From Vicinamibacterales bacterium (GTDB taxonomy: Bacteria > Acidobacteriota > Vicinamibacteria > Vicinamibacterales > UBA8438): a DNA stretch of 64,000 nt. Within the stretch, counting starts at the first letter, position 1. Every line of letters starts with the position of its first letter. Under the pieces are notes generated by a model that made no database searches, was not told the origin of the DNA, and saw only the letters and a list, made by a program, of their open reading frames with translations. The stretch lies in assembly GCA_965218825.1 (NCBI GenBank), contig OZ244656.1, forward strand, positions 1,882,480-1,946,479, written 5' to 3'. The position numbers and the translations under genes were made by a program. Of this stretch, positions 12,469 through 63,054 are shown one piece after another.

Positions 12469-13854
12469 GAGATATAGGCAAATGTTGTGTATAAGGCGTC
12501 AGGCGGCTTTCTGTCTCACGCCGTCGACGAAGGGCACCCCGTCGATGACCTCGGCGATTAGCTGAGACCCGTTCAGCGCTCTCCATTGTTTCTGCGCGGC
12601 CATCGCCAGCTTGAACACCATCGTCAAGCAGGCCAGTCGGCTGCCCGCGCCCTTGGTCTTCCTCGTGCGGAGCCGGACGGTCGCGAACGTGGACTCGACC
12701 GGGTTCGTGGTACGGATGTGCATCCAGTGTTCGGCCGGAAAGGCGTAGAAGGTCAGGAGAACATCCCGGTCCTTCACCAGGCAGGTCGTCGCGGCTGGGA
12801 ACTTTGCGGCAAACGTCGCCACAAAGAGGGCGAAGGCTTGGTCGGCCGCCGCCTGCGTCTCGGCCATCCAGATGTCGTGAAGCATGGCTTTCGCCTTGGG
12901 TTGCACACCCTTGGGGAGCTTGTTGAGCACGTTCGCCGTCTTGTGGACCCAACACCGCTGCTCACGGGTTTTCGGAAACACTTTCCGCACGGCGCCCCAG
13001 AAGCCGAGGCCCCCGTCGCCGATGGCGAGCTCGGGATCGATCGTGAGTCCGCGGGCACGGACATCGAGCAGCAACTCGCGCCATGACTGTTCGCTCTCCC
13101 GGTAGCCATCGGTGATCGCGATGAGCTCCTTCGTCCCGTCTCGGGTGGCGCCCATCAGCACCAGAATGCATTGCCGTTTGTTGTCCGTGTCCTCGAGCCG
13201 GACGTTGAAGTACACGCCGTCGGCCCAGACGTAGGCGTAGCGCGTGTACGCCAACGACCGCTTCGACCAGTCCTGGTACTCGTGCGCCCACACTGCCTTC
13301 AGCCGCGTGATGGTCGTCGCCGATAACCCGCGCGCCTCGGGCCCCAACAACGCCTGGAGCGCCTCGCCGAAGCCGCCGGTGCTGATGCCCTTGAGATAAA
13401 GCCAGGGATACAGGGCCTCCAAGCTGGGGGTCTTCCGCAGATAGGGCGGCAGGACCGCCGACCGGAACGTCTCGCGCTCGTCGGCGGGCCGGCGGTCCCG
13501 GACCCGCGGTTGCTGCACCTGGACGTCCCCGACTGGGGTCTGTATCGTCCGCTCGGGCAAGCGGCCGTTGCGGACCACACCCCGTTGCCCGGCGGCGTCC
13601 ACGGTGGTCGCCCGAGCATCCAGATACTCGTCAACCTCCGCCTCGATCGCCGTGGCCAGCATTCGCTGCGCCCCGGTGCGCAGCACATCGGTCAACACGT
13701 CGCGGGCCGATGCCTGTGGGAACTCGACCAACTTTTCGCTAGGCTTCGTCATGGTGGCGTACCTCCTTGCCCCTTGGGGTGAACTGGGTGCCTCAGCAAC
13801 ACCCAGGGTACGCCGCCTGTTCACAGCCTCATACCCAACTTTCGGTTATACCTC
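12469..13854 (-). mobile_element. IS256-family IS, type 1, copy 2 (complete, 1386 bp, no TSD)
   Basis: Imperfect terminal IRs GAGATATAGGCAAATGTTGTGTATAAGGC / GAGGTATAACCGAAAGTTGGGTATGAGGC (22/29). Flanking 9-mers differ. Confidence 0.9.
12499..13824 (-). CDS. IS256-family transposase (441 aa)
   Basis: Full ORF with Mutator/IS256-type layout. Near-identical to 25051-26376. Confidence 0.9.
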   Translation of the reverse strand: MNRRRTLGVAEAPSSPQGARRYATMTKPSEKLVEFPQASARDVLTDVLRTGAQRMLATAIEAEVDEYLDARATTVDAAGQRGVVRNGRLPERTIQTPVGDVQVQQPRVRDRRPADERETFRSAVLPPYLRKTPSLEALYPWLYLKGISTGGFGEALQALLGPEARGLSATTITRLKAVWAHEYQDWSKRSLAYTRYAYVWADGVYFNVRLEDTDNKRQCILVLMGATRDGTKELIAITDGYRESEQSWRELLLDVRARGLTIDPELAIGDGGLGFWGAVRKVFPKTREQRCWVHKTANVLNKLPKGVQPKAKAMLHDIWMAETQAAADQAFALFVATFAAKFPAATTCLVKDRDVLLTFYAFPAEHWMHIRTTNPVESTFATVRLRTRKTKGAGSRLACLTMVFKLAMAAQKQWRALNGSQLIAEVIDGVPFVDGVRQKAA

Positions 13855-14405: not shown

Positions 14406-14765
14406 GAGGTATAACCGAAAGTTGGGTATGAGGCTGTGAACAGGCGGCGTACCCTGGGTGTTGCTGAGGCACCCAGTTCACCCCAAGGGGCAAGGAGGTA
14501 CGCCACCATGACGAAGCCTAGCGAAAAGTTGGTCGAGTTCCCACAGGCATCGGCCCGCGACGTGTTGACCGATGTGCTGCGCACCGGGGCGCAGCGAATG
14601 CTGGCCACGGCGATCGAGGCGGAGGTTGACGAGTATCTGGATGCTCGGGCGACCACCGTGGACGCCGCCGGGCAACGGGGTGTGGTCCGCAACGGCCGCT
14701 TGCCCGAGCGGACGATACAGACCCCAGTCGGGGACGTCCAGGTGCAGCAACCGCGGGTCCGGGAC

Positions 14766-16197
14766 GAAGGTGCGCGAAACTTAGTTGGGAATTGAAGCGG
14801 CTCCAAACCCTGTGGTTTGATGACGTTGCCTAAGACGAACATCACGCCACGAGAGAAAGGAGCCGAGATGAGCAGTGTCCTACGACCCGTCAGGAAGCGC
14901 AAGAAGGTTCGCACGTTGGGCCCGGTCGACGTCATCGACCGGAAGGAGTACGCCGAACTGGACGTCGACACCAAGGTGGAGTTGATCCGGTCCTTGGTGC
15001 CGCTGGGGTTGCTGCATGTCGAGGAGTTGCTCGACGCGGAGGTGACGGCGCTGGCGGGCGGGCGCTATGCCCGCAAGGACGCATCGGTCGGCGGGCGTCG
15101 TCATGGCAGCAACCCCGGGACGGTCGGGTTGGCCGGCCAGCGCGTGCCAATTCGCGTGCCACGGATTCGCCATGTCGCGGGGAGCGAGATGCCGCTGCGG
15201 TCCTACGAGGCGTTGCATGGGGAGCGCGCGGTGAACGACCTGCTGCTGAAGCGCGTGCTGTACGGAATCTCGTGCCGCAACTACGAAGCCGCCGCGGCGG
15301 CGATTCCCGGAGCCATCGGGCTGTCGGGGTCGACCGTGTCCCGGGGCTTTATTCAGGCTAGCGCGGCGAAACTGCGGGAGCTCCAGGAGCGGGACCTCTC
15401 CGGCGAGGACGTGGTGGCCGTGGTCCTGGACGGCAAGACCGTTGCCGAGGCAACGATGGTCATCGCGCTGGGCATCACGATGGCGGGGGAAAAACGCTTT
15501 CTGGGCTTCGTCGAGACGGATACCGAGAACGAGAAAGTGTTGACCCCGTTCTTGCGGTCGTTGGTCGAGCGGGGTCTTGACGTCTCCCAGGGCGTGCTGG
15601 TGATCCTCGACGGCGGCAAGGGGCTGCGATCAGCCGTCCGCAAAGCCTTCCGGGACCGGGCGCTGGTCCACCGGTGCCAGTGGCATAAGCGCGAGAACGT
15701 GGTGAGTTACCTGGCCAAGACCGAGCAGGCGTCGTGGCGCCAGCGCCTCCAACGCGCCTACAACCGTCCGGAATACGACGAAGCCCGCGCGGCCCTTGAG
15801 ACGCTCCATCGCGAGCTGGAGGACCGGAACCAATCGGCGGCCCGCAGCTTGGCGGAAGGCTTCGACGAGACCTTGACGCTGCATCGACTCGGGCTCTACG
15901 GCGTTCTGGGCCGCTCGCTGAAGACGACGAACTGTCTGGAGTCCGTCAATGCGCTCGTCGAGGAACGCTGCGCGAAGGTCGATCACTGGCAAAACTCGCG
16001 TCAACGTCACCGCTGGCTGGCGACCGCGCTCTTGGACATCGAACCGCGCCTGCGCAAGGTGATGGGGTACCGGCACCTGCCCACGCTCCGTGCCGCGTTG
16101 AAGCGAGAACTGAAGATCGACACGACGACGTCGAAGAAGAAAGCCGCGTAGTCAATCAGGAGCCGTAGAGAGTTTCAACTAAGAATGGGCTTGACTC
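14766..16197 (+). mobile_element. IS256-family IS, type 2 (1432 bp) with 8-bp TSD
   Basis: Flanked by TCCGGGAC at 14758-14765 and 16198-16205. Termini share CTTAGTTG and CGGCTCC blocks in inverted orientation. Confidence 0.85.
14820..16151 (+). CDS. IS256-family transposase, type 2 (443 aa)
   Basis: Full ORF, colinear with IS256-type transposases but divergent from type 1. ATG at 14820 (a TTG lies at 14817). Confidence 0.85.
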   Translation: MTLPKTNITPREKGAEMSSVLRPVRKRKKVRTLGPVDVIDRKEYAELDVDTKVELIRSLVPLGLLHVEELLDAEVTALAGGRYARKDASVGGRRHGSNPGTVGLAGQRVPIRVPRIRHVAGSEMPLRSYEALHGERAVNDLLLKRVLYGISCRNYEAAAAAIPGAIGLSGSTVSRGFIQASAAKLRELQERDLSGEDVVAVVLDGKTVAEATMVIALGITMAGEKRFLGFVETDTENEKVLTPFLRSLVERGLDVSQGVLVILDGGKGLRSAVRKAFRDRALVHRCQWHKRENVVSYLAKTEQASWRQRLQRAYNRPEYDEARAALETLHRELEDRNQSAARSLAEGFDETLTLHRLGLYGVLGRSLKTTNCLESVNALVEERCAKVDHWQNSRQRHRWLATALLDIEPRLRKVMGYRHLPTLRAALKRELKIDTTTSKKKAA

Positions 16198-16384
16198 TCC
16201 GGGACCGCCGGCCCGCCGACGAGCGCGAGACGTTCCGGTCGGCGGTCCTGCCGCCCTATCTGCGGAAGACCCCCAGCTTGGAGGCCCTGTATCCCTGGCT
16301 TTATCTCAAGGGCATCAGCACCGGCGGCTTCGGCGAGGCGCTCCAGGCGTTGTTGGGGCCCGGGACATACCCTTGCGGGGGCGT

Positions 16385-22716: not shown

Positions 22717-24117
22717 TTAACAGCCCGTGGTGCAAGTGATCGCCGCTGACGAGTTGACGGCAAACGTGGCCAGTGACGCGAGCCGACCGCGCACGGCCGG
22801 GATGAGTCGATGCGACGACGAAATCGTGGTGAGCCGACGTCGGACGACGCCCATGAGCACCCCTAACGTCGCAAGAACAGCGGCCACGCGGCCCTGCAGC
22901 CCGCGCGGCGTGCCGATCCCGATCAGATGACGCATGACGAGCCCGAGATTGAAGCCACCCGCATGAATCAGGAGGCGCTTCAGGATGTTCGTGTGGCCGC
23001 GCAGATGGGTGCGCCGCATCCCGCCCGTGTCGTAGAGATGCGCAAACGAGCGTTCGATCCGTTCGCCGCGTTGGCGCATCAGGCGGCGGCCGCGTCGTCC
23101 CCGCATCCGGCGACGATTGCCATACACCGGCGCCCGGGCCTCGGGATCCTTCGACCAATCACGTCGCCCCCTGTCCGGCTCGGACACGTAGGACCGGATA
23201 CCCACGGCGTCCAGGTCGATCAGGGTCTGATTGCTGTGATACCCCTTATCACCGACGATCTCTTCCAGAGACTGCCGATCGTCAACGTTGGCCTGCGCGT
23301 CTTCGACCTGCTCGGTCGCGGCGATGGCGGTCTCGATGATCGTCGTGGTGTCGCCGACATCGGCACCTTGCAGTGTCACCGCGACAATCGCGCCGGTCTC
23401 CATGTCGACGGCATGCTCGGCTTTGTGCGCCAGATGCGTGCGGCCATCTGTCATCTTCGTGACCTTCGCATCGGGATCGTGGGGGTTCGTCCAGTCTGTG
23501 TTCGAGGTCTTCTTCTTCCGCTTCCGATCCAGTCGCGCCAGACCCTCGCGCGTGGGCGTCTCGATCCCCGAGGCCGTCGCGAGACCCGCCAGAAACGCCT
23601 GGTAGCTCTCGCCGGTGTCCCGGCGGACGATGCTGCGCATCGCCGCGTTCGCCTCGAGCGTCGTGGCGTCAATCGCGATGGTCTTGCCCTTCAGACGGCC
23701 GGCCTCGACGAGTCGTTGTTGCACCCACGTAAAGACGGTCCGGTGCGTCTCCAGATCGATCAAGCGCCGCGTGCGCGCAATCGTCGAATGATCGGGTGGC
23801 GCCTCGTCCACGGCCAACCGCAGAAAGCTGCGGACCGCCAACGAGTCCGTCGCGCGCCACGCAATCCCGCGTTCCGAGTCGATGCCTTCGAAGTAGCCGA
23901 CCAGCAGCAGGCGGAAGTAGCGCCCGGGTGCCAAGCTCGGTCGGCCCATCACGGGCGCGTAGAACCGGTCACACAGGCCTTCGACGAACCGATCGAAGGG
24001 GTGCCCGTCGAGCAGCGTCGTCAGCCGCGCGTAGAACGGATGGCCCGGCGAGGTGGGCAGGTCCGACGTCGCGATCCACAGCGGCGGTTGATCCGTCTCG
24101 CGCGTTCCCATAGCCAT
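22717..24117 (-). CDS. IS1182/IS5-type DDE transposase (466 aa)
   Basis: PFYARLTTLL...FEGIDSERGIAWRATDSLAVRSFL...DKGYHS...ERSFAHLYDTGGMRRTHLRG signature. The ORF reads through the IR to a flank stop. Confidence 0.8.
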   Translation of the reverse strand: MAMGTRETDQPPLWIATSDLPTSPGHPFYARLTTLLDGHPFDRFVEGLCDRFYAPVMGRPSLAPGRYFRLLLVGYFEGIDSERGIAWRATDSLAVRSFLRLAVDEAPPDHSTIARTRRLIDLETHRTVFTWVQQRLVEAGRLKGKTIAIDATTLEANAAMRSIVRRDTGESYQAFLAGLATASGIETPTREGLARLDRKRKKKTSNTDWTNPHDPDAKVTKMTDGRTHLAHKAEHAVDMETGAIVAVTLQGADVGDTTTIIETAIAATEQVEDAQANVDDRQSLEEIVGDKGYHSNQTLIDLDAVGIRSYVSEPDRGRRDWSKDPEARAPVYGNRRRMRGRRGRRLMRQRGERIERSFAHLYDTGGMRRTHLRGHTNILKRLLIHAGGFNLGLVMRHLIGIGTPRGLQGRVAAVLATLGVLMGVVRRRLTTISSSHRLIPAVRGRLASLATFAVNSSAAITCTTGC

Positions 24118-25020: not shown

Positions 25021-26406
25021 GAGATATAGGCAAATGTTGTGTATAAGGCGTCAGGCGGCTTTCTGTCTCACGCCGTCAACGAAGGGCACCCCGTCGATGA
25101 CCTCGGCGATTAGCTGAGACCCGTTCAGCGCTCTCCATTGTTTCTGCGCGGCCATCGCCAGCTTGAACACCATCGTCAAGCAGGCCAGTCGGCTGCCCGC
25201 GCCCTTGGTCTTCCTCGTGCGGAGCCGGACGGTCGCGAACGTGGACTCGACCGGGTTCGTGGTACGGATGTGCATCCAGTGTTCGGCCGGAAAGGCGTAG
25301 AAGGTCAGGAGAACATCCCGGTCCTTCACCAGGCAGGTCGTCGCGGCTGGGAACTTTGCGGCAAACGTCGCCACAAAGAGGGCGAAGGCTTGGTCGGCCG
25401 CCGCCTGCGTCTCGGCCATCCAGCTGTCGTGAAGCATGGCTGTCGCCTTGGGTTGCACACCCTTGGGGAGCTTGTTGAGCACGTTCGCCGTCTTGTGGAC
25501 CCAACACCGCTGCTCACGGGTGTTCGGAAACACTTTCCGCACGGCGCCCCAGAAGCCGAGGCCCCCGTCGCCGATGGCGAGCTCGGGATCGATCGTGAGT
25601 CCGCGGGCACGGACATCGAGCAGCAACTCGCGCCATGACTGTTCGCTCTCCCGGTAGCCATCGGTGATCGCGATGAGCTCCTTCGTCCCGTCTCGGGTGG
25701 CGCCCATCAGCACCAGAATGCATTGCCGTTTGTTGTCCGTGTCCTCGAGCCGGACGTTGAAGTACACGCCGTCGGCCCAGACGTAGGCGTAGCGCGTGTA
25801 CGCCAACGACCGCTTCGACCAGTCCTGGTACTCGTGCGCCCACACTGCCTTCAGCCGCGTGATGGTCGTCGCCGATAACCCGCGCGCCTCGGGCCCCAAC
25901 AACGCCTGGAGCGCCTCGCCGAAGCCGCCGGTGCTGATGCCCTTGAGATAAAGCCAGGGATACAGGGCCTCCAAGCTGGGGGTCTTCCGCAGATAGGGCG
26001 GCAGGACCGCCGACCGGAACGTCTCGCGCTCGTCGGCGGGCCGGCGGTCCCGGACCCGCGGTTGCTGCACCTGGACGTCCCCGACTGGGGTCTGTATCGT
26101 CCGGTCGGGCAAGCGGCCGTTGCGGACCACACCCCGTTGCCCGGCGGCGTCCACGGTGGTCGCCCGAGCATCCAGATACTCGTCAACCTCCGCCTCGATC
26201 GCCGTGGCCAGCATTCGCTGCGCCCCGGTGCGCAGCACATCGGTCAACACGTCGCGGGCCGATGCCTGTGGGAACTCGACCAACTTTTCGCTAGGCTTCG
26301 TCATGGTGGCGTACCTCCTTGCCCCTTGGGGTGAACTGGGTGCCTCAGCAACACCCAGGGTACGCCGCCTGTTCACAGCCTCATACCCAACTTTCGGTTA
26401 TACCTC
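25021..26406 (-). mobile_element. IS256-family IS, type 1, copy 3 (complete, 9-bp TSD)
   Basis: CTCGATGTC at 25012-25020 and 26407-26415. Same IRs as copy 2. Confidence 0.95.
25051..26376 (-). CDS. IS256-family transposase (441 aa)
   Basis: Differs from 12499-13824 by a few residues only. Confidence 0.9.
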   Translation of the reverse strand: MNRRRTLGVAEAPSSPQGARRYATMTKPSEKLVEFPQASARDVLTDVLRTGAQRMLATAIEAEVDEYLDARATTVDAAGQRGVVRNGRLPDRTIQTPVGDVQVQQPRVRDRRPADERETFRSAVLPPYLRKTPSLEALYPWLYLKGISTGGFGEALQALLGPEARGLSATTITRLKAVWAHEYQDWSKRSLAYTRYAYVWADGVYFNVRLEDTDNKRQCILVLMGATRDGTKELIAITDGYRESEQSWRELLLDVRARGLTIDPELAIGDGGLGFWGAVRKVFPNTREQRCWVHKTANVLNKLPKGVQPKATAMLHDSWMAETQAAADQAFALFVATFAAKFPAATTCLVKDRDVLLTFYAFPAEHWMHIRTTNPVESTFATVRLRTRKTKGAGSRLACLTMVFKLAMAAQKQWRALNGSQLIAEVIDGVPFVDGVRQKAA

Positions 26407-43551: not shown

Positions 43552-44401
43552 TTGACGTTTGCCACCGTTCCTGCCGGAGAGCGGTTGGCCGATGACCTGA
43601 TTGCGTTGGCCAGTAGCATCAACCCTAACATTGAGACGTCTAAAACGGGCACTGCCAATGTCGGTCTCTCGATCGGCGTGAATGCACCGGCCGTCGACGC
43701 GCTAACCGTATACGCCGGCTGCGATGGCTGGCTAGGCAGGGTAGGCACCAAGGGTCCATACAGAACCAGCGACCTCGGAAACCCCTTTGGAGCCGGCTTC
43801 GCCGCCTGCTTGGCGGCAGCCAACCTGTTTCGCTTCTTATTCCTTCCCGACGGCCCAACTTTATTGGATGCCGATCTTCGTTTTCCTTCCGACGCTGCCT
43901 CTTTCCCGCGTCTTGTGGCCTCCACAATGACGGACCCCTTGGTGTTGGTAGGTGTTGGAGCGGTGGGCAACAGTGCCTGCTGGGCACTAGCGCGTACGCC
44001 GCTAATCGGCCAGATTTACCTGGTCGATCCACAAATCGTCGAGCTTAGCAATCTGCAGCGCTACGTTCTCTGTGCGCGGAGCGACGAAAACGGCGTCAAG
44101 GTTGATATCGTTGGGAAGGAATTTGAGGGCGCACTACGTGCGCGACTTCATCAGGGAACATGGGCGTCCTTCGTGGGGACCAATGGCTACCATTGGGAAC
44201 GCGTTCTGGTTGCCCTAGATTCCGCCCATGACCGACGAGCCGTGCAAGGGAGCCTGCCACGTTGGGTCGCTAACGCGTGGACCCAGGCAGGTGATCTCGG
44301 CGTGTCCACTCATTCTTTCTTGGGTCCCGATGCCTGTCTTGCGTGCCTTTATTTGCCAACCCAGAAATCCAAGAACGAAGACCAGATCGTCGCTGAAAGC
44401 C
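43552..44401 (+). pseudogene. E1-like ThiF/UBA-family adenylating enzyme, C-terminus cut by IS
   Basis: LVGVGAVGNSACWALA Rossmann motif, YLVDPQIVELSNLQRY, CLAC. ~130-aa N-terminal extra domain. Reading frame enters the IS IR at 44402. TTG start uncertain. Confidence 0.7.
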
Positions 44402-45490
44402 TGCCTTGGTGCACAACTCCATTGAGGGCTGAGAGTCTCCCGTGACTCCGCCTGCCGGTCATCCGATCATCTCGCCATCGGGTATCCCGAGCGCCGTCAT
44501 GGTGTTCAGGATCTTGCACCCCAACCTCACCTCGACTCTCTGGGACGCCAGTCCCCTCGCTCGCATCGCTGAGCCCAGGATGGCCTTGTAGCGGTGGAAC
44601 GTCGTCTCCACCTTGCTTCGCCTGCTGTAGCCCGATGCGACGTACCACTTCCGTTTCCCAACATGTGATCGTGCTCGGATGTTACGATTCCGCTGTCACG
44701 TGCCCGCAGAGTCGAGCGCGAGCTGAGCGCCCTTTCGTGGCGGTATCAGCACCTTCGGCGATCGATGAGCACGGTGATTCTCCAGCGTCTTATAGACGTC
44801 GCCGGTGGCGTACGCGGCGTCGGCCTTGGCCGAGGCGATGGGACGCTCGATCTGGCCGACGAGTGACGCCACCCGGGAAGCGTCTCGAGCCCGCTTGCTC
44901 GTGAGCTCGCAGGCGACCACGTCACTGGTTTGCTCATCCACAGCGAGGTGCAGCTTGCGGTAGTCCCTGGCTTTCGGCGGAGTGCGCAACTGGCCGACGT
45001 GCACTGAAAGACCGCTGCTGTCGATGCGGAGGTGGACGGGCTTCACGGTTCGCCTCTCGGAGGAAGCAACCTTCCCCAGCCTCGCCTTGCGCCTCGAGAT
45101 CGTGCTGTGGTCGGGCACGTCGTTGTCCAGATTCAGGAGCGTCAGCAGCGAGCGCAGGAAGCCCTCAGTCTGCCTGGACGCCAGGCCAAACACCAAGCCC
45201 AAGGTGACCGTCGTCTCGATGGCGTGGTTCGAGTACTTGCGTTGTCGGCCTGGCTTCCTGCGCGTCGGCCTCGGCGAGTTCCAGTTGGCGAGCTTGCCAT
45301 CGGTGAGTCCGAGCCAGACGGTCAGACTCCCGCGAGCGCGGAGACCCGTCTCGTACTCCCGCCAATTCCGGACACGGTAGGCCTTCTGGACGTACTTCCG
45401 CTGGGTGCGCTTGAAACTCGTCATGCGGGACCTCGGATCTCGGGGTGGAGGGCAATTATTGACCGAGATCGCGAGTTGTGCACCAAGGCA
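44402..45490 (-). mobile_element. IS5-family (IS903-like) IS, copy A (1089 bp)
   Basis: 18-bp perfect IRs TGCCTTGGTGCACAACTC. The 9-mers at its own two ends do not match. Confidence 0.9.
44459..45424 (-). pseudogene. IS903-like transposase with premature TGA
   Basis: TGA at 44696-44698 where copies B and C have CGA. ORF stops after 242 of 321 codons. Confidence 0.85.
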
Positions 45491-45963
45491 TGGTGCTGGC
45501 CCATGATCGACGCCAGATCCTGCATGTCAACGTGACGGGGTACCCCACGGCCGCGTGGACGGCCCAACAGATCCGCAACGCGTTCCCGTGGGACACGGCG
45601 CCACGGTTTCTGTTGCGGGATCGCGACGGGACCTACGGCCACAATTTTCGGGCCTGTCTCGAGGCGATGGAGATCGACGAGGTCCTGACGGCTCCCCAGA
45701 GTCCGTGGCAGAACCCGTATGTCGAACGACTGATCGGATCGATGCGCCGAGAGTGCGTCGACCACGTGATCGTGCTCAATGAGCGATCACTCCACCGAAT
45801 ACTGCGATCGTACATCGACTACTATCATCTCTGGCGCACGCATCTCTCGTTGGGCAAGGATGCGCCCGTGAGCCGACGCGTCGAGCCTGCTGCACCGGGC
45901 GAGGTCATGGCGATGCCGCACGTGGGCGGCCTGCACCACAGCTACCATCGTCACGCGGCCTGA
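45491..45963 (+). pseudogene. rve-type integrase, C-terminal half
   Basis: AHDRRQILHVNVTGYPTAAWTAQQ...PQSPWQNPYVERLIGSMRRECVDH. Begins at the IS junction. Confidence 0.85.
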
Positions 45964-46191
45964 CGACCGCCATGGACGGTCGCCGCCGGAAGACCGTGCA
46001 CGCCGCGCGGCGGCCGGAGGAACGTCCGAAGGACGCCAGCCACTCGTCGGCGTTCACGGAGTGCACGTCCGCGATGGCGTTGGTGCACAACCCTTCGGCT
46101 GCGACGAGGCAGCTGTAGGCTCTCTGGCCACGGTGACCGCTGCGGGTGCACGATCTCGACATGAGATCAAAGGTCCATCCGAAGTACAAGA

Positions 46192-47280
46192 TGCCTTGGT
46201 GCACAACTCGCGATCTCGGTCAATAATTGCCCTCCACCCCGAGATCCGAGGTCCCGCATGACGAGTTTCAAGCGCACCCAGCGGAAGTACGTCCAGAAGG
46301 CCTACCGTGTCCGGAATTGGCGGGAGTACGAGACGGGTCTCCGCGCTCGCGGGAGTCTGACCGTCTGGCTCGGACTCACCGATGGCAAGCTCGCCAACTG
46401 GAACTCGCCGAGGCCGACGCGCAGGAAGCCAGGCCGACAACGCAAGTACTCGAACCACGCCATCAAGACGACGGTCACCTTGGGCTTGGTGTTTGGCCTG
46501 GCGTCCAGGCAGACTGAGGGCTTCCTGCGCTCGCGGCTGACGCTCCTGAATCTGGACAACGACGTGCCCGACCACAGCACGATCTCGAGGCGCAAGGCGA
46601 GGCTGGGGAAGGTTGCTTCCTCCGAGAGGCGAACCGTGAAGCCCGTCCACCTCCGCATCGACAGCAGCGGTCTTTCAGTGCACGTCGGCCAGTTGCGCAC
46701 TCCGCCGAAAGCCAGGGACTACCGCAAGCTGCACCTCGCTGTGGATGAGCAAACCAGTGACGTGGTCGCCTGCGAGCTCACGAGCAAGCGGGCTCGAGAC
46801 GCTTCCCGGGTGGCGTCACTCGTCGGCCAGATCGAGCGTCCCATCGCCTCGGCCAAGGCCGACGCCGCGTACGCCACCGGCGACGTCTATAAGACGCTGG
46901 AGAATCACCGTGCTCATCGATCGCCGAAGGTGCTGATACCGCCACGAAAGGGCGCTCAGCTCGCGCTCGACTCTGCGGGCACGCGACAGCGGAATCGTAA
47001 CATCCGAGCACGATCACATGTTGGGAAACGGAAGTGGTACGTCGCATCGGGCTACAGCAGGCGAAGCAAGGTGGAGACGACGTTCCACCGCTACAAGGCC
47101 ATCCTGGGCTCAGCGATGCGAGCGAGGGGACTGGCGTCCCAGAGAGTCGAGGTGAGGTTGGGGTGCAAGATCCTGAACACCATGACGGCGCTCGGGATAC
47201 CCGATGGCGAGATGATCGGATGACCGGCAGGCGGAGTCACGGGAGACTCTCAGCCCTCAATGGAGTTGTGCACCAAGGCA
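46192..47280 (+). mobile_element. IS903-like IS, copy B (1089 bp)
   Basis: Same IRs as copy A. Its IRR-side 9-mer CCAGCACCA is the reverse complement of the 9-mer at the IRL side of copy A. Confidence 0.9.
46258..47223 (+). CDS. IS903-like (IS5-family) transposase, 321 aa
   Basis: YRVRNWREYETGLRARGSLTVWL N-terminus and DDE_Tnp_1-type core. Intact. Confidence 0.85.
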   Translation: MTSFKRTQRKYVQKAYRVRNWREYETGLRARGSLTVWLGLTDGKLANWNSPRPTRRKPGRQRKYSNHAIKTTVTLGLVFGLASRQTEGFLRSRLTLLNLDNDVPDHSTISRRKARLGKVASSERRTVKPVHLRIDSSGLSVHVGQLRTPPKARDYRKLHLAVDEQTSDVVACELTSKRARDASRVASLVGQIERPIASAKADAAYATGDVYKTLENHRAHRSPKVLIPPRKGAQLALDSAGTRQRNRNIRARSHVGKRKWYVASGYSRRSKVETTFHRYKAILGSAMRARGLASQRVEVRLGCKILNTMTALGIPDGEMIG

Positions 47281-47848
47281 CCAGCACCACGAAGACAAAG
47301 AGCACCCGAAACGTGAGCGTCGGGACCACGAAGAAGTCGACCGAGACGAGTTGGCCGATGTGATTCGTCAGAAACGTACGCCAGGTCTGGGACGGCGGGG
47401 GCCGACGACGCACCATGTAGTGCCCGACCGTGGCTTCGGCGATCGCGATACCGAGTCTCAGCAGCTCGCCGTGGATGCGCGGGGCGCCCCAGGTCGGGTT
47501 GGCGTGGCACATCTGGCGGATGAGCACTTGAACGGCGCGCGGGATGCGTGGCCGACCGGGTCCGCGCGGCCGACTCTTCCAGCGCCAATAGCACCGAAAC
47601 CCTCGTCGATGCCACCGGAGAACGGTGTCGGGCTTGACGATGACGAGCGCTCGCCGCCATCCGGGCCACAGGTGACAGAGCCACGTCCAGAACAGCCGGT
47701 CAACGGACCGCAACCGCGGGCGCCCGCGGGCCTGTCGCTGCAGGACCGCTCATTGATGACGAAGCGCCGCGTTCTCAATCTGGAGCGCCGCCTGGCTCTG
47801 CAGGCCTGAGCCCAACGCGGTGAACAGTACGAGACAGACGGTCCGCAT
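47281..47848 (-). pseudogene. rve-type integrase, N-terminal half, with in-frame TGA
   Basis: MRTVCLV...LQIENAALRHQ*AVLQRQ...DRLFWTWL...VDFFVVPTLTFRVLFVFVVL. TGA at 47750-47752. Ends at the IS junction. Confidence 0.8.
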
Positions 47849-47995
47849 GGCCCGTGATGCTAGCAGGCCGACGCGAGATCCTCAATAATGCCCAATGTAC
47901 ATAATGGGGGGACGAGGTTTTCGGTAGGCACAGGAGAGTCGCCGCCACCTGATCTGGCCCCCAGTGGTCCTTCCCGGGAAGGACTGCGCGTTTCA

Positions 47996-48257
47996 ATGTC
48001 GCTCACGGAGACACTTGAGCAGTTTCCAGGATCGATGGCACGGACCGTCCGTCTGCTTCTGCAATTCGGCACCGGGCGGCTTGAGGAGGAGAACCGCGAA
48101 CTAAAGGTTGAACGTGCTGACCTTCTCAGTCGGATTGAACAGCTCCAATATCAAGTAGCCAAGAAGCAAACCCGTTCCGCTGTGCTGGTGGATCGGATAC
48201 GACAACTCAAGGTCGCAAGACGGCTCTACCAAATTCTTCAGACGCTTGGCGACCTAG
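47996..48257 (+). pseudogene. small coiled-coil protein gene, 5-prime part (interrupted by two IS)
   Basis: MSLTETLEQF...LQTLGDL runs into the IS1182-like IR. After removal of both IS the frame continues at 50920 (DAGWHGG*). Confidence 0.55.
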
Positions 48258-49720
48258 CAGCCCGTGGTGAAAATCAGCAACGGCCTCGGCTAGATCGATC
48301 GCCAGAATCGATCATCATCTGTACACTCGTTCGCATGTCAATGGGCACACGACGCAAACGACGACGACAAGAAGCCCTCTGGGTCGCGACGACCGACTTG
48401 CCCCAGACGGTCGCCCACCCGTTCTATCGTCGAGTGAACGCCCTGCTGGACGCCCACGGTTTCGAGACGTTTGTCGAACGGCAGTGCCAGCGGTTCTACG
48501 CCGCCACCCGTGGCCGGCCAAGTCTCACGCCGGGCATCTACTTTCGCGCGTTGTTGGTGGGGTACTTTGAAGGCATTGACTCGGAGCGGGGCATCGCCTG
48601 GCGCGCGGCGGACTCGCTGGCGATTCGGCGCTTCTTGGGCATCGCCGTGGACGAGGATGTGCCGGACCACTCGACGATCTCCCGAACCCGGCGACTGATT
48701 GACGTCGAGACGCATCGCGCCGTGTTCACCTGGGTGCAGCAGCGCCTCGTCGCGTCGGGCGTGCTGAAGGGCGCGACGATCGGGATCGACGCCACCACGC
48801 TGGAGGCGAACGCGGCGATGCGGAGCATCGTGCGGCGGGACACCGGCGAGGACTACCAGGCCTATTTGACCGGCTTGGCGCAGGCGTCGGGCATTGCCAC
48901 CCCGACGCGCGACGACCTCGCCCGCCTGGACCGGAAGCGGAAGAAGACGCCATCGAACAAGGACTGGCGGAGCCCCGTCGATCCGGATGCGAAGGTCGCC
49001 AAGATGAAAGACGGCCGCACGCATCTGGCCCACAAGGTCGAACATGCCGTGGACCTCGACACCGGCGCGGTCGTCGCGGTGACCGTGCAAGGCGCAGACA
49101 CGGGGGATACGACGGTCGCCGCCGCTGCCCAGATCGAGGATGCGCAAGCCGAGGTGGACGACCCCCAGGCGTTCACCGCGCTGGTCGCGGACAAGGGCTA
49201 TCACAGTAATGAGGTCATGGTGGATCTGCAGGCCGTCGGCGTCCGGTCGTATGTCGCCGAGCCGGATCGAGGCCGCCGCGATTGGTCCAAGGCGCGGGAG
49301 GCCCAAGCGCCCGTCTATGCGAATCGTCGGCGCATTCGGGGCGCCCGCGGCAAGCGCTTGATGCGCCGACGTGGCGAGCGCATCGAGCGTTCGTTCGCGC
49401 ACGCCTACGAGACCGGCGGGATGCGGCGCACGCATCTGCGCGGGCATCGCAATATCTTGAAGCGCCTCTTGATTCACCTCGCGGGCTTCAACCTCGGCGT
49501 GCTGTTCCGGCAGCTGATCGGCGTTGGCACGCCGCGCAGCCTGCAGGGGCGCTGTCTCGCCGCGCTGATGGTCCTTGTGTCCTCCTGGCGGCGCCTCGTA
49601 CATGTCTGGACCGTTCGCGAGCCCGAGTACCCCGCGCGTTCCACGATCGGGGTCGGCGATCACGATCGATCACTCATCCCGAAAGCCGCATAGGAAGACC
49701 GCATTTCCACCACGGGCTGC
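48258..49720 (+). mobile_element. IS1182-like IS, copy 2
   Basis: Same 12-bp IRs as copy 1. Flanked by (C)TAG on both sides. Confidence 0.85.
48335..49693 (+). CDS. IS1182/IS5-type transposase (452 aa)
   Basis: Paralog of 22717-24117. ATG at 48335 chosen; the longer track ORF is a read-through from the interrupted host gene. Confidence 0.8.
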   Translation: MSMGTRRKRRRQEALWVATTDLPQTVAHPFYRRVNALLDAHGFETFVERQCQRFYAATRGRPSLTPGIYFRALLVGYFEGIDSERGIAWRAADSLAIRRFLGIAVDEDVPDHSTISRTRRLIDVETHRAVFTWVQQRLVASGVLKGATIGIDATTLEANAAMRSIVRRDTGEDYQAYLTGLAQASGIATPTRDDLARLDRKRKKTPSNKDWRSPVDPDAKVAKMKDGRTHLAHKVEHAVDLDTGAVVAVTVQGADTGDTTVAAAAQIEDAQAEVDDPQAFTALVADKGYHSNEVMVDLQAVGVRSYVAEPDRGRRDWSKAREAQAPVYANRRRIRGARGKRLMRRRGERIERSFAHAYETGGMRRTHLRGHRNILKRLLIHLAGFNLGVLFRQLIGVGTPRSLQGRCLAALMVLVSSWRRLVHVWTVREPEYPARSTIGVGDHDRSLIPKAA

Positions 49721-49722
49721 TA

Positions 49723-50917
49723 GTCCCCTTGATCTTTGATTTCTTCAAAAAGTCGTTGGTCATCTGGGGCCACCGTGGACTTGAACGGTGCGCTGTCCGA
49801 ACCGCTTCACCTTCGCGAGGATCTCGTCGGCTGTGTTCGTCCACTTGAAAGGCTTGCCCTCGTCATTGTGGGCGTCCACGTAGGCGGAGATGGCGTGGCG
49901 CAGCGCGTGCGTGCTGGAATGTGAGCCGCGCTTGAGGGCGTGTTCGGTGAGGAGGCCAAAGAACCGCTCGACGAGGTTGAGCCAGGCGGAGTAGGTTGGC
50001 GTAAAGTGGAACTGGAAGCGCGGGTGGCGGGCCACCCATCGTGTGACCAGCGGGGACTTATGCGCCGAGAGATTGTCGAGGATCACGTGGACGGTGAGGG
50101 TGGGGTCCACCCGCTCGTCGATCTCGCGCAGAAAGCTCACGAAATCCCTCGACCGATGCTGCTTCTTGGTTTGCGCCACGACCTGGCCGGTCGCGACGTT
50201 GAGCGCCGCGAAGAGGTCCACCGTGCCATGGCGGATGTAGTTGTGCGTCTGGCGTTCGGGCCGACCCATGTCCATCGGCAGGATCGGCTGCGCTCGCTCG
50301 AGGGCTTGAATCTGAGGCTTTTCGTCGAATGACAAGACACCGGCGTGGTCGGGTGGATTCAGGTAGAGGCCGACAATGTCCCGCACCTTCTCGAGGAACA
50401 GCGGGTCGTCGGAGATCTTGAAGGATTCCACGACATGCGGCTGCAACCCGAAGGTGCGCCAGATGCGGCCCACGGTGGAGGCACTGACGCCAGCGCGCTC
50501 CGCCATCTTGCGGGTGCTCCAGTGGGTCCGCCCCTTCGGCTTACTTTCCAACGTGGCGACGAGGATCGACTCGACATCCGCATCGGACAGTGTCCGGGGG
50601 GCTCCGGGCTTGGGCTCGTCATACAGCGCATCCACGCGACCTGTCGTAACCCGCTGCCGCCACTTGCCGACCGTCACATTCGAACAGCGCAGTTTCGCCG
50701 CGACCGCCACGTTCGATTCGCCATGCGCGCACCTCAGGACGATCTTCGCCCGCAAGGCCACATGCCGATTCGTTCTGGCGCGCCTGGCGAGCCGCTCAAG
50801 TTCTCCTCGCTCCACGGCGGTGACTTCCAATCTCGCTTTGGGCCGACCTGTTCTTGCCATGCCGCCCCATACATCACACCCGGCACACTTCTTAAAGCTT
50901 TTTCAGACACAAGGGAC
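49723..50917 (-). mobile_element. IS630-family IS (1195 bp) with TA duplication
   Basis: IRs GTCCCCTTGATCTTTGA / GTCCCTTGTGTCTGA. TA at 49721-49722 and 50918-50919. Confidence 0.8.
49760..50860 (-). CDS. IS630-family transposase (366 aa)
   Basis: HTH N-terminus, DEKPQIQALER, ILDNLSAHKS and YSAWLNLVERFF signatures. Confidence 0.85.
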   Translation of the reverse strand: MARTGRPKARLEVTAVERGELERLARRARTNRHVALRAKIVLRCAHGESNVAVAAKLRCSNVTVGKWRQRVTTGRVDALYDEPKPGAPRTLSDADVESILVATLESKPKGRTHWSTRKMAERAGVSASTVGRIWRTFGLQPHVVESFKISDDPLFLEKVRDIVGLYLNPPDHAGVLSFDEKPQIQALERAQPILPMDMGRPERQTHNYIRHGTVDLFAALNVATGQVVAQTKKQHRSRDFVSFLREIDERVDPTLTVHVILDNLSAHKSPLVTRWVARHPRFQFHFTPTYSAWLNLVERFFGLLTEHALKRGSHSSTHALRHAISAYVDAHNDEGKPFKWTNTADEILAKVKRFGQRTVQVHGGPR

Positions 50918-61965: not shown

Positions 61966-63054
61966 TGCCTTGGTGCACAACTCCATTGAGAGCTGAGAGT
62001 CTCCCGTGACTCCGCCTGCCGGTCATCCGATCATCTCGCCATCGGGTATCCCGAGCGCCGTCATGGTGTTCAGGATCTTGCACCCCAACCTCACCTCGAC
62101 TCTCTGGGACGCCAGTCCCCTCGCTCGCATCGCTGAGCCCAGGATGGCCTTGTAGCGGTGGAACGTCGTCTCCACCTTGCTTCGCCTGCTGTAGCCCGAT
62201 GCGACGTACCACTTCCGTTTCCCAACATGTGATCGTGCTCGGATGTTACGATTCCGCTGTCGCGTGCCCGCAGAGTCGAGCGCGAGCTGAGCGCCCTTTC
62301 GTGGCGGTATCAGCACCTTCGGCGATCGATGAGCACGGTGATTCTCCAGCGTCTTATAGACGTCGCCGGTGGCGTACGCGGCGTCGGCCTTGGCCGAGGC
62401 GATGGGACGCTCGATCTGGCCGACGAGTGACGCCACCCGGGAAGCGTCTCGAGCCCGCTTGCTCGTGAGCTCGCAGGCGACCACGTCACTGGTTTGCTCA
62501 TCCACAGCGAGGTGCAGCTTGCGGTAGTCCCTGGCTTTCGGCGGAGTGCGCAACTGGCCGACGTGCACTGAAAGACCGCTGCTGTCGATGCGGAGGTGGA
62601 CGGGCTTCACGGTTCGCCTCTCGGAGGAAGCAACCTTCCCCAGCCTCGCCTTGCGCCTCGAGATCGTGCTGTGGTCGGGCACGTCGTTGTCCAGATTCAG
62701 GAGCGTCAGCCGCGAGCGCAGGAAGCCCTCAGTCTGCCTGGACGCCAGGCCAAACACCAAGCCCAAGGTGACCGTCGTCTCGATGGCGTGGTTCGAGTAC
62801 TTGCGTTGTCGGCCTGGCTTCCTGCGCGTCGGCCTCGGCGAGTTCCAGTTGGCGAGCTTGCCATCGGTGAGTCCGAGCCAGACGGTCAGACTCCCGCGAG
62901 CGCGGAGACCCGTCTCGTACTCCCGCCAATTCCGGACACGGTAGGCCTTCTGGACGTACTTCCGCTGGGTGCGCTTGAAACTCGTCATGCGGGACCTCGG
63001 ATCTCGGGGTGGAGGGCAATTATTGACCGAGATCGCGAGTTGTGCACCAAGGCA
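61966..63054 (-). mobile_element. IS903-like IS, copy C (1089 bp)
   Basis: Same IRs as copies A and B. Flanking 9-mers GTGTGGATA and ACATGATGC differ. Confidence 0.9.
62023..62988 (-). CDS. IS903-like transposase, 321 aa
   Basis: Intact. Start MTSFKRTQ at 62988; the 406-aa track ORF is an upstream read-through. Confidence 0.85.
   Translation of the reverse strand: MTSFKRTQRKYVQKAYRVRNWREYETGLRARGSLTVWLGLTDGKLANWNSPRPTRRKPGRQRKYSNHAIETTVTLGLVFGLASRQTEGFLRSRLTLLNLDNDVPDHSTISRRKARLGKVASSERRTVKPVHLRIDSSGLSVHVGQLRTPPKARDYRKLHLAVDEQTSDVVACELTSKRARDASRVASLVGQIERPIASAKADAAYATGDVYKTLENHRAHRSPKVLIPPRKGAQLALDSAGTRQRNRNIRARSHVGKRKWYVASGYSRRSKVETTFHRYKAILGSAMRARGLASQRVEVRLGCKILNTMTALGIPDGEMIG

Follow-up and report, generated by a model that had tools for sequence, protein, structure and literature searches.

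Intramolecular replicative transposition in trans has been described for the insertion sequence (IS) IS26 (PMC4471558), and the general scheme, in which the cis geometry leads to deletions and the trans geometry to inversions, together with the loss of flanking repeats, has been reviewed (PMC7986276). For IS903, both replicative and conservative transposition have been reported, as have adjacent deletions (PMC4471558 citing Weinert 1983; PMC7986276; PMC11708052). Here, we analysed a 64,000-nucleotide stretch of a Vicinamibacterales bacterium (Acidobacteriota; assembly GCA_965218825.1, contig OZ244656.1, positions 1,882,480 to 1,946,479 of the forward strand), hereafter "the window", which carries three copies (A, B, and C) of a 1089-bp IS903-like element. 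Copies A and B face each other in opposite orientation across a 701-bp segment, and a second, 1225-bp IS with an rve-type transposase has been cut in two, with one part inside this segment and the other beyond it. This is the footprint known for IS-driven inversion, the signature of an event long known from IS26, Tn3-family elements, and IS903.

The locus resembles the IS26 (IS6 family) case in having a second IS copy in opposite orientation, inverted DNA between donor and target, target duplications that are inverted relative to each other, another IS split into two inverted parts (ISSwi1 there, the rve-type IS here), and a general absence of flanking direct repeats (PMC4471558, PMC7986276). 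It differs in the transposase (IS5 rather than IS6 family), in the length of the duplication (9 bp versus 8 bp), in residing on a chromosome rather than a plasmid, and in being known from sequence alone. With IS903 and IS903B, the element shares a single open reading frame (ORF), a length of ~1.06–1.09 kb, 18-bp terminal inverted repeats (IRs), a 9-bp target duplication, and the DDE_Tnp_1_5 and DDE_Tnp_1 domains, but the transposases, which align end to end, have only ~32% amino acid (aa) identity over 98% of the length, and the hosts are Acidobacteriota, not Enterobacteria. Further, IS903B copies with their own direct repeats have been found (PMC4471558), whereas none of the 84 full-length copies considered here (3 in the window and 81 in loci of relatives, from Vicinamibacterales and Marinacidobacterales genomes) has an own duplication of 5–9 bp. 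Inversions made by homologous recombination likewise have inverted IS copies at their end points and flanks exchanged between copies; recombination of two ordinary insertions, however, leaves reciprocal flanks and mostly intact copies, neither of which is seen here.

Results

Copies A and B share one target duplication, and the split gene can be rejoined

Copy A (44402-45490, minus strand) and copy B (46192-47280, plus strand), both 1089 bp long, are inverted relative to each other, and the 701-bp segment between them (45491-46191) has been flipped from its original orientation. The first nine bases of this segment, TGGTGCTGG (45491-45499), adjoin the left IR (IRL) of A, and their exact reverse complement, CCAGCACCA (47281-47289), lies beyond the segment against the right IR (IRR) of B, so that in IS orientation the IRL flank of A equals the IRR flank of B, with one of the two mutually inverted 9-mers inside the segment and one outside. 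Such a match among the six non-self flank pairs has a chance probability of ~2e-4, given that the real flanks of the 84 copies match at a measured rate of 0.32 per base. Locus L001 provides the corresponding empty site: its uninterrupted rve-type IS (L001 5921-7145) matches the window from 47932 to 47281 and then from 45491 to 46076, with an overlap of exactly 9 nt between the two matches (L001 6560-6568). The empty site has these 9 bp once and the window has them twice, which makes them a genuine 9-bp target duplication.

The gene disrupted at this site has its C-terminal half on the plus strand (45491-45963) and its N-terminal half on the minus strand (47848-47281). Joining the minus strand from 47848 to 47281 with positions 45500 to 45963, which amounts to flipping 45491-46191 and dropping one IS and one 9-mer, gave a 343-codon ORF that is in frame at the junction (...VFVVL before it, AHDRRQ... 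after it). This ORF aligned with ten 343-aa homologues over 343 gap-free columns, with the junction in near-invariant columns, and was 99% identical to an intact 343-aa protein (P0001) encoded on the contig of L001. The window had previously been interpreted by a model from its letters and ORFs only (the sequence-only reading), which proposed the opposed gene halves, the reverse-complementary 9-mers to the right of A and of B, a single target duplication common to two inverted copies, and the in-frame rejoining; all of these were borne out by the intact L001 copy, the 9-nt overlap, and the homologue alignment. It had also remarked that none of the copies A, B, and C has matching 9-mers at its own two ends, which we confirmed, and within the window none of the partner 9-mers (CTGAAAGCC, TCTTGTACT, GTGTGGATA, and ACATGATGC) adjoins another IS end.

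The split gene is the transposase of a second IS

The 5′ part of the rve-type IS (47281-47932, minus strand) holds the left end, which begins TGTG..., and the N-terminal 189 codons (ATG at 47848), and is 98.8% identical to L001 5921-6568; the 3′ part (45491-46076, plus strand) holds the C-terminal 154 codons (stop at 45961-45963) and the right end, and is 99.3% identical to L001 6560-7145. The ends of the element in the window are thus at 47932 and 46076, and the element is multi-copy in related assemblies and genomes. Its transposase carries an rve_3 domain (42.3 bits versus a cut-off of 26.5) plus HTH_32/HTH_21, and the element resembles single-ORF rve-type ISs related to IS481 and IS3 in these domains, in being a 1225-bp multi-copy element, and in its TGTG... 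left end. It differs from them in that its transposase scores far below the curated NCBIfam cut-offs of both families (IS481, 85.7 bits against 224; IS3, 85.9 bits against 160). A second lesion, TGA at codon 33 (47752-47750), corresponds to TTA in the intact L001 copy. The earlier label of an "rve integrase gene" holds for the rve domain but not for a stand-alone integrase, the gene being the transposase of a 1225-bp multi-copy IS; the event is one IS hit by another, and both affected genes are dead mobile-element genes. No clear target duplication of the rve-type IS itself was found at the window copy or at L001 5921-7145. Its right end (…GTGCACG[G/T]CCGCGATG, window 46062-46076) resembles the L001 sequence immediately left of the element, which ends in …ACGTCCGCGG directly before TGTGCC.

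Further 9-bp duplications are split between different copies

All-against-all comparison of IRL flanks with IRR flanks among the copies revealed three further exact 9-bp split duplications, each within one genome: L021/L023, 2.66 Mb apart on one chromosome; L049/L051, 22 kb apart on one contig; and L069/L076, on two contigs of one metagenome-assembled genome (MAG; CBDFNJ). The 9-bp length, which the sequence-only reading had offered as a check on its account, therefore recurs in three other split pairs. In L021/L023 and L049/L051, the copies are inverted with one duplicate inside and one outside, as in A/B. Rejoining the flanks restored genes, with Amidohydro_3 and DDE_Tnp_ISL3 domains each colinear through the junction and, for the third pair, a 475-aa secreted Cu-monooxygenase-like ORF; joining the own flanks of single copies gave junk. 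Reciprocal flank matches were present in none of the four pairs (A/B and the three further ones), and the four known 9-bp targets share no consensus. Of the 105 pairs in its MAG (median, 5 differences), L069/L076 alone is identical, which fits a parent and its daughter. One more exact 9-mer match (GCCAGCCGG), between the IRL flank of L045 in a Marinacidobacterales MAG and the IRR flank of L019 in a Vicinamibacterales MAG, was treated as chance, as the two belong to different orders and ~0.1 such matches are expected over all comparisons.

No copy in the census has its own target duplication

A scan of species-representative genomes yielded 80 loci with the 1089-bp IS (the best 80 of 416 matches). 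Some 35 of these (~35 of 80), with 96-98% aa identity, came from MAGs of Vicinamibacterales, among them several closed chromosomes, and the remaining loci, at 72-75% aa identity, were nearly all from Candidatus Marinacidobacterales, plus one Pirellulaceae MAG. An own 9-bp duplication was found at none of the 81 full-length copies in these loci, and over all 84 copies the mean number of own-flank mismatches was 6.06 of 9, compared with 6.10 for random pairs. Shorter or displaced own repeats, and repeats of other lengths, did not exceed chance among the 84 copies and the metagenome contigs. These contigs contributed 22 complete copies with 0 own duplications, a count of little weight, as short-read contigs across repeats may be chimeric. 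Six copies on OZ252219.1 differ by 0-2 bases, and none has an own duplication. A long open frame across the own flanks of L021 was considered as a candidate simple insertion without duplication and was discarded as Arg/Gly/Pro-rich antisense junk.

Two arrangements in the census stand apart. At L077 2839-5021, two tandem direct IS copies lie exactly 9 bp apart (TCGAAAGGT) and are followed by TCGAAAGTA, the only near-duplication seen (2 mismatches). At L004 3935-5415, a complete copy directly adjoins part of another (IS positions 698-1089) with the same orientation, the outcome expected of a replicative deletion into a neighbouring copy.

Other IS families were read in the same DNA. An IS256-family element at 14766-16197 (1432 bp) has its own 8-bp duplication TCCGGGAC on both sides, at 25021-26406 an IS256-like copy is flanked by its own 9-bp duplication CTCGATGTC, and a 1431-bp IS retains its own repeats in L003 and L010. 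A second IS903-like family (~1075-1083 bp, IR GGCGTTGGTGCGCGG) occurs in the same Vicinamibacterales genomes (L009 6084-7166, L014 5697-6769, L017 7803-8875, L028 997-2079, and L035 1356-2431), and none of these five copies has its own target duplication.

The element and its three copies in the window

Copies A, B, and C end in perfect 18-bp terminal IRs (TGCCTTGGTGCACAACTC), as seen by repeat finding and direct reading. Copy C (61966-63054, minus strand; 1089 bp) lies between two unrelated truncated genes. Differences among the three are confined to IS positions 274, 344, 793, and 1064, each private to one copy; at position 793, copy A has a CGA>TGA nonsense change (44698-44696) that leaves 242 of the 321 aa of its transposase, and copy B encodes an intact 321-aa transposase at 46258-47223. 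As all four differences are private, the pattern of single-nucleotide polymorphisms (SNPs) is uninformative as a test for recombination. A 1094-nt repeat that had seemed to give B and C a shared flank was rejected as mere extension through mismatches; their flanks differ.

The transposase of copy B scored 221.6 bits against NCBIfam NF033579 (transpos_IS5_2, IS5 family; cut-off 140) and contains the Pfam domains PF13737 DDE_Tnp_1_5 (E=1.9e-23) and PF01609 DDE_Tnp_1 (E=1.6e-16). The IR is identical at 12/18 positions to the IS903B end GGCTTTGTTGAATAAATC, read in a Klebsiella plasmid (L084). "IS903-like" is a fair label because of the transposase alignment and this IR match, and, with transposase model, size, IR, and 9-bp duplication all in agreement, the element is, as judged from these features, a member of the IS5 family, IS903 group. 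The best plasmid relative of the copy B transposase is an Agrobacterium element with 47% identity. It lies on Agrobacterium pusense plasmid NC_022536.1 (L082 371-1501, IR GCGTTGGTGCACGGATC), and at this single copy, whose ends are uncertain by a base or two, no obvious 9-bp duplication was found.

Surroundings of the copies

Each of the three copies in the window lies between fragments of unrelated genes. Copy A is bounded by the rve-type C-terminal half on one side and, on the other, by a 3′-truncated Prok-E2_C plus ThiF/E1-like gene (43552-44401, plus strand), which abuts the IRR of A at an old junction with flank CTGAAAGCC. The Prok-E2_C domain matches Pfam at E=5e-12, only positions 24-79 of the 238 in the ThiF profile are matched, and the ORF runs into the IS; the gene is a fusion of the ubiquitin-like conjugation type, cut in mid-ThiF by copy A, and its 3′ part was not found within the window.

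Copy B lies between the rve-type N-terminal half and a 115-bp relic of a third, related IS903-like element (46077-46191, plus strand), which abuts the IRL of B at an old junction with flank AGTACAAGA. The relic begins with an IR-like sequence GCGTTGGTGCACAACCC (15/18 match to the IR, by eye), followed by an ATG at 46161 and the first ~10 codons, which resemble a transposase start. It is 72-78% identical to the ends of the second IS903-like family, and its positions 31-115 (85 bp) are 100% identical to L028 912-996 on the Vicinamibacterales chromosome OY759970.1, where a second-family IS abuts the identical stretch. Copy C has on its left a CMAS-type methyltransferase that breaks off at profile position 73 of 273 and on its right a fumarase C-terminus that starts at profile position 118 of 205.

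Elsewhere in the window, the 1386-bp IS256-like element has three copies (1-771, cut by the window start; 12469-13854; and 25021-26406), one with a 9-bp duplication (CTCGATGTC) and one without. A fourth IS256-like copy, inverted and truncated (14406-14765 and 16198-16362), is split by the 14766-16197 element. The IS cluster continues to the right of the split rve-type IS (47888-50860) with an IS1182/IS5-type transposase ORF (DUF772, DDE_Tnp_1, and DDE_Tnp_1_6) and an IS630-family transposase at 49763-50860; an inverted copy of the IS1182/IS5-type ORF, 73-74% similar, lies at 22888-24081.

Discussion

A probable one-step origin of the inversion

We consider that the A-segment-B structure was probably made in one step, by intramolecular replicative transposition in trans. 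The starting point would have been a single 1089-bp IS between the truncated E2/E1-like gene and the 115-bp relic, with an intact 1225-bp rve-type IS just beyond. The IS would have attacked the 9-bp site CCAGCACCA in its neighbour's transposase gene, at a distance of ~0.7 kb in the same molecule, through replicative transposition of the Shapiro type (nick and strand transfer) with trans geometry. Replication through the intermediate would then have duplicated the IS into the mutually inverted copies A and B and left the 701-bp stretch from donor to target inverted, and one copy of the 9-bp target would have come to lie inside, next to the IRL of A, and the other, in inverted orientation, outside, next to the IRR of B. 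Written as F1-IS-S-T-F2 (F1, everything up to 44401; S, 45500-46191 in reverse complement; T, CCAGCACCA), the progenitor gives the predicted product F1-IS-rc(T)-rc(S)-IS'-T-F2, which is the window except for 3 SNPs between A and B. Also in favour of this origin are the lack of own duplications at all 84 copies and at the five of the second IS903-like family, the three further split duplications, with inverted copies wherever both partners lie on one contig, the lack of reciprocal pairs, the identity of L069 and L076, the duplications kept by other IS families, the unrelated gene fragments around A, B, and C, and the replicative transposition reported for IS903.

A progenitor locus was sought by exact-protein look-ups of the 786-aa neighbour gene and of the B and C transposases, which returned no record, and the loci of relatives showed no synteny with the window outside the IS sequences. 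Several points weigh against the one-step origin. The final sequence would be identical under a two-step model, so that the window itself does not discriminate. Copy A is as distant from copy B (3 sites) as either is from C, so that A and B carry no parent-daughter signal and the event is not a recent one. A chromosome with n copies scrambled by recombination would also keep only ~1/n of its own duplications, and recombination is more frequent in high-copy IS families than in the low-copy families that served as controls. Finally, the census comprises the best 80 of 416 matches rather than whole genomes.

Alternatives to the one-step origin

The sequence-only reading had envisaged insertion followed by recombination between inverted copies; the inversion and the shared duplication stand, and the order of events is not required, since one step gives the identical product. 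In its full form, this account has a simple insertion of the IS into the rve-type transposase gene, with a 9-bp duplication, followed by RecA-type recombination with an inverted copy 0.7 kb away, with the unmatched outer flanks explained by earlier rearrangements, and we regard it as possible, though rather doubtful. It yields exactly the observed structure, and two inverted repeats of 1.1 kb with 99.7% identity offer good substrates for recombination; moreover, IS903-type elements can make simple insertions (PMC4471558, PMC7986276), and recombination between IS copies often causes missing duplications (PMC11708052). However, the intermediate it needs, a copy with its own duplication, was seen in 0/84 copies, including the six near-identical ones on OZ252219.1, while other IS families in the same DNA retain theirs. 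If both partners were ordinary insertions, it further predicts reciprocal flank matches (IRL flank of A equal to IRR flank of B and vice versa), yet none of the four pairs is reciprocal, the IRL flank of B being AGTACAAGA and the IRR flank of A GGCTTTCAG; recombination of two ordinary insertions is thus tenable only for a partner whose duplication had been lost beforehand. The identity of L069/L076, alone among 105 pairs, also speaks against it. Single-step replication appears the more economical of the two routes, because it takes one event from a progenitor resembling every other copy, and the intermediate of the two-step route was never observed in the clade.

That the flanks were misjoined across IS repeats during assembly, so that the real genome has ordinary insertions, is very unlikely. 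IS copies are classic misjoin sites, the related genomes are metagenome-assembled, and the short-read metagenome contigs that run through the IS, which may be chimeric, also lack duplications. Against this, A-segment-B is a structure of only 2.9 kb with 3 differences between its arms and is thus neither a collapsed nor a fold-back repeat; the signature recurs in independent closed chromosomes and is inverted in all three single-sequence pairs (the window, L021/L023, and L049/L051), and coherent gene halves are joined at every junction. Still more improbable is that the halves derive from two rve-type IS copies, each struck in a separate event at one 9-bp hot spot and afterwards truncated, or that a composite element moved. 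The rve-type IS is indeed multi-copy in related genomes, and inverted IS903 copies flanking ~1 kb resemble Tn903. Two independent hits at an identical 9 bp plus two deletions would be needed, however, while the four known targets share no consensus and other rve-type IS copies are uninterrupted at the site; as for a composite, its outer flanks CTGAAAGCC and CCAGCACCA do not form a duplication, and the missing half of the target lies within the inner segment, unlike in a composite insertion.

Conclusions

This event, in a part of an acidobacterial genome that is dense in ISs, is a clean worked example of one IS killing another mobile element and inverting DNA. The point for specialists is the clade-wide lack of own target duplications, which suggests an IS5-family lineage that behaves like IS26. 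Quite possibly, although we put this forward tentatively, the IS903-like clade of Vicinamibacterales and Candidatus Marinacidobacterales, together with at least one sister family, may rely on a replicative, cointegrate-type pathway for essentially all of its transposition, as IS26 does. Tavakoli and Derbyshire are said to have described, in 2001, laboratory IS903 variants shifted towards cointegrate formation (cited in PMC7986276), and the clade would, if the proposal is true, be their natural counterpart. If its members never leave an own duplication, pipelines that rely on flanking repeats would misjudge its copies. Each intrachromosomal gain of a copy would be coupled to an inversion (or, in the cis geometry, to a deletion), which would make the IS a direct, recombination-independent engine of chromosome rearrangement. 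Synteny breaks in these soil and marine Acidobacteriota genomes could then be read not as noise from recombination but as a transposition record written in a chain of shared 9-mers, and such a record would let the order of inversions be reconstructed.

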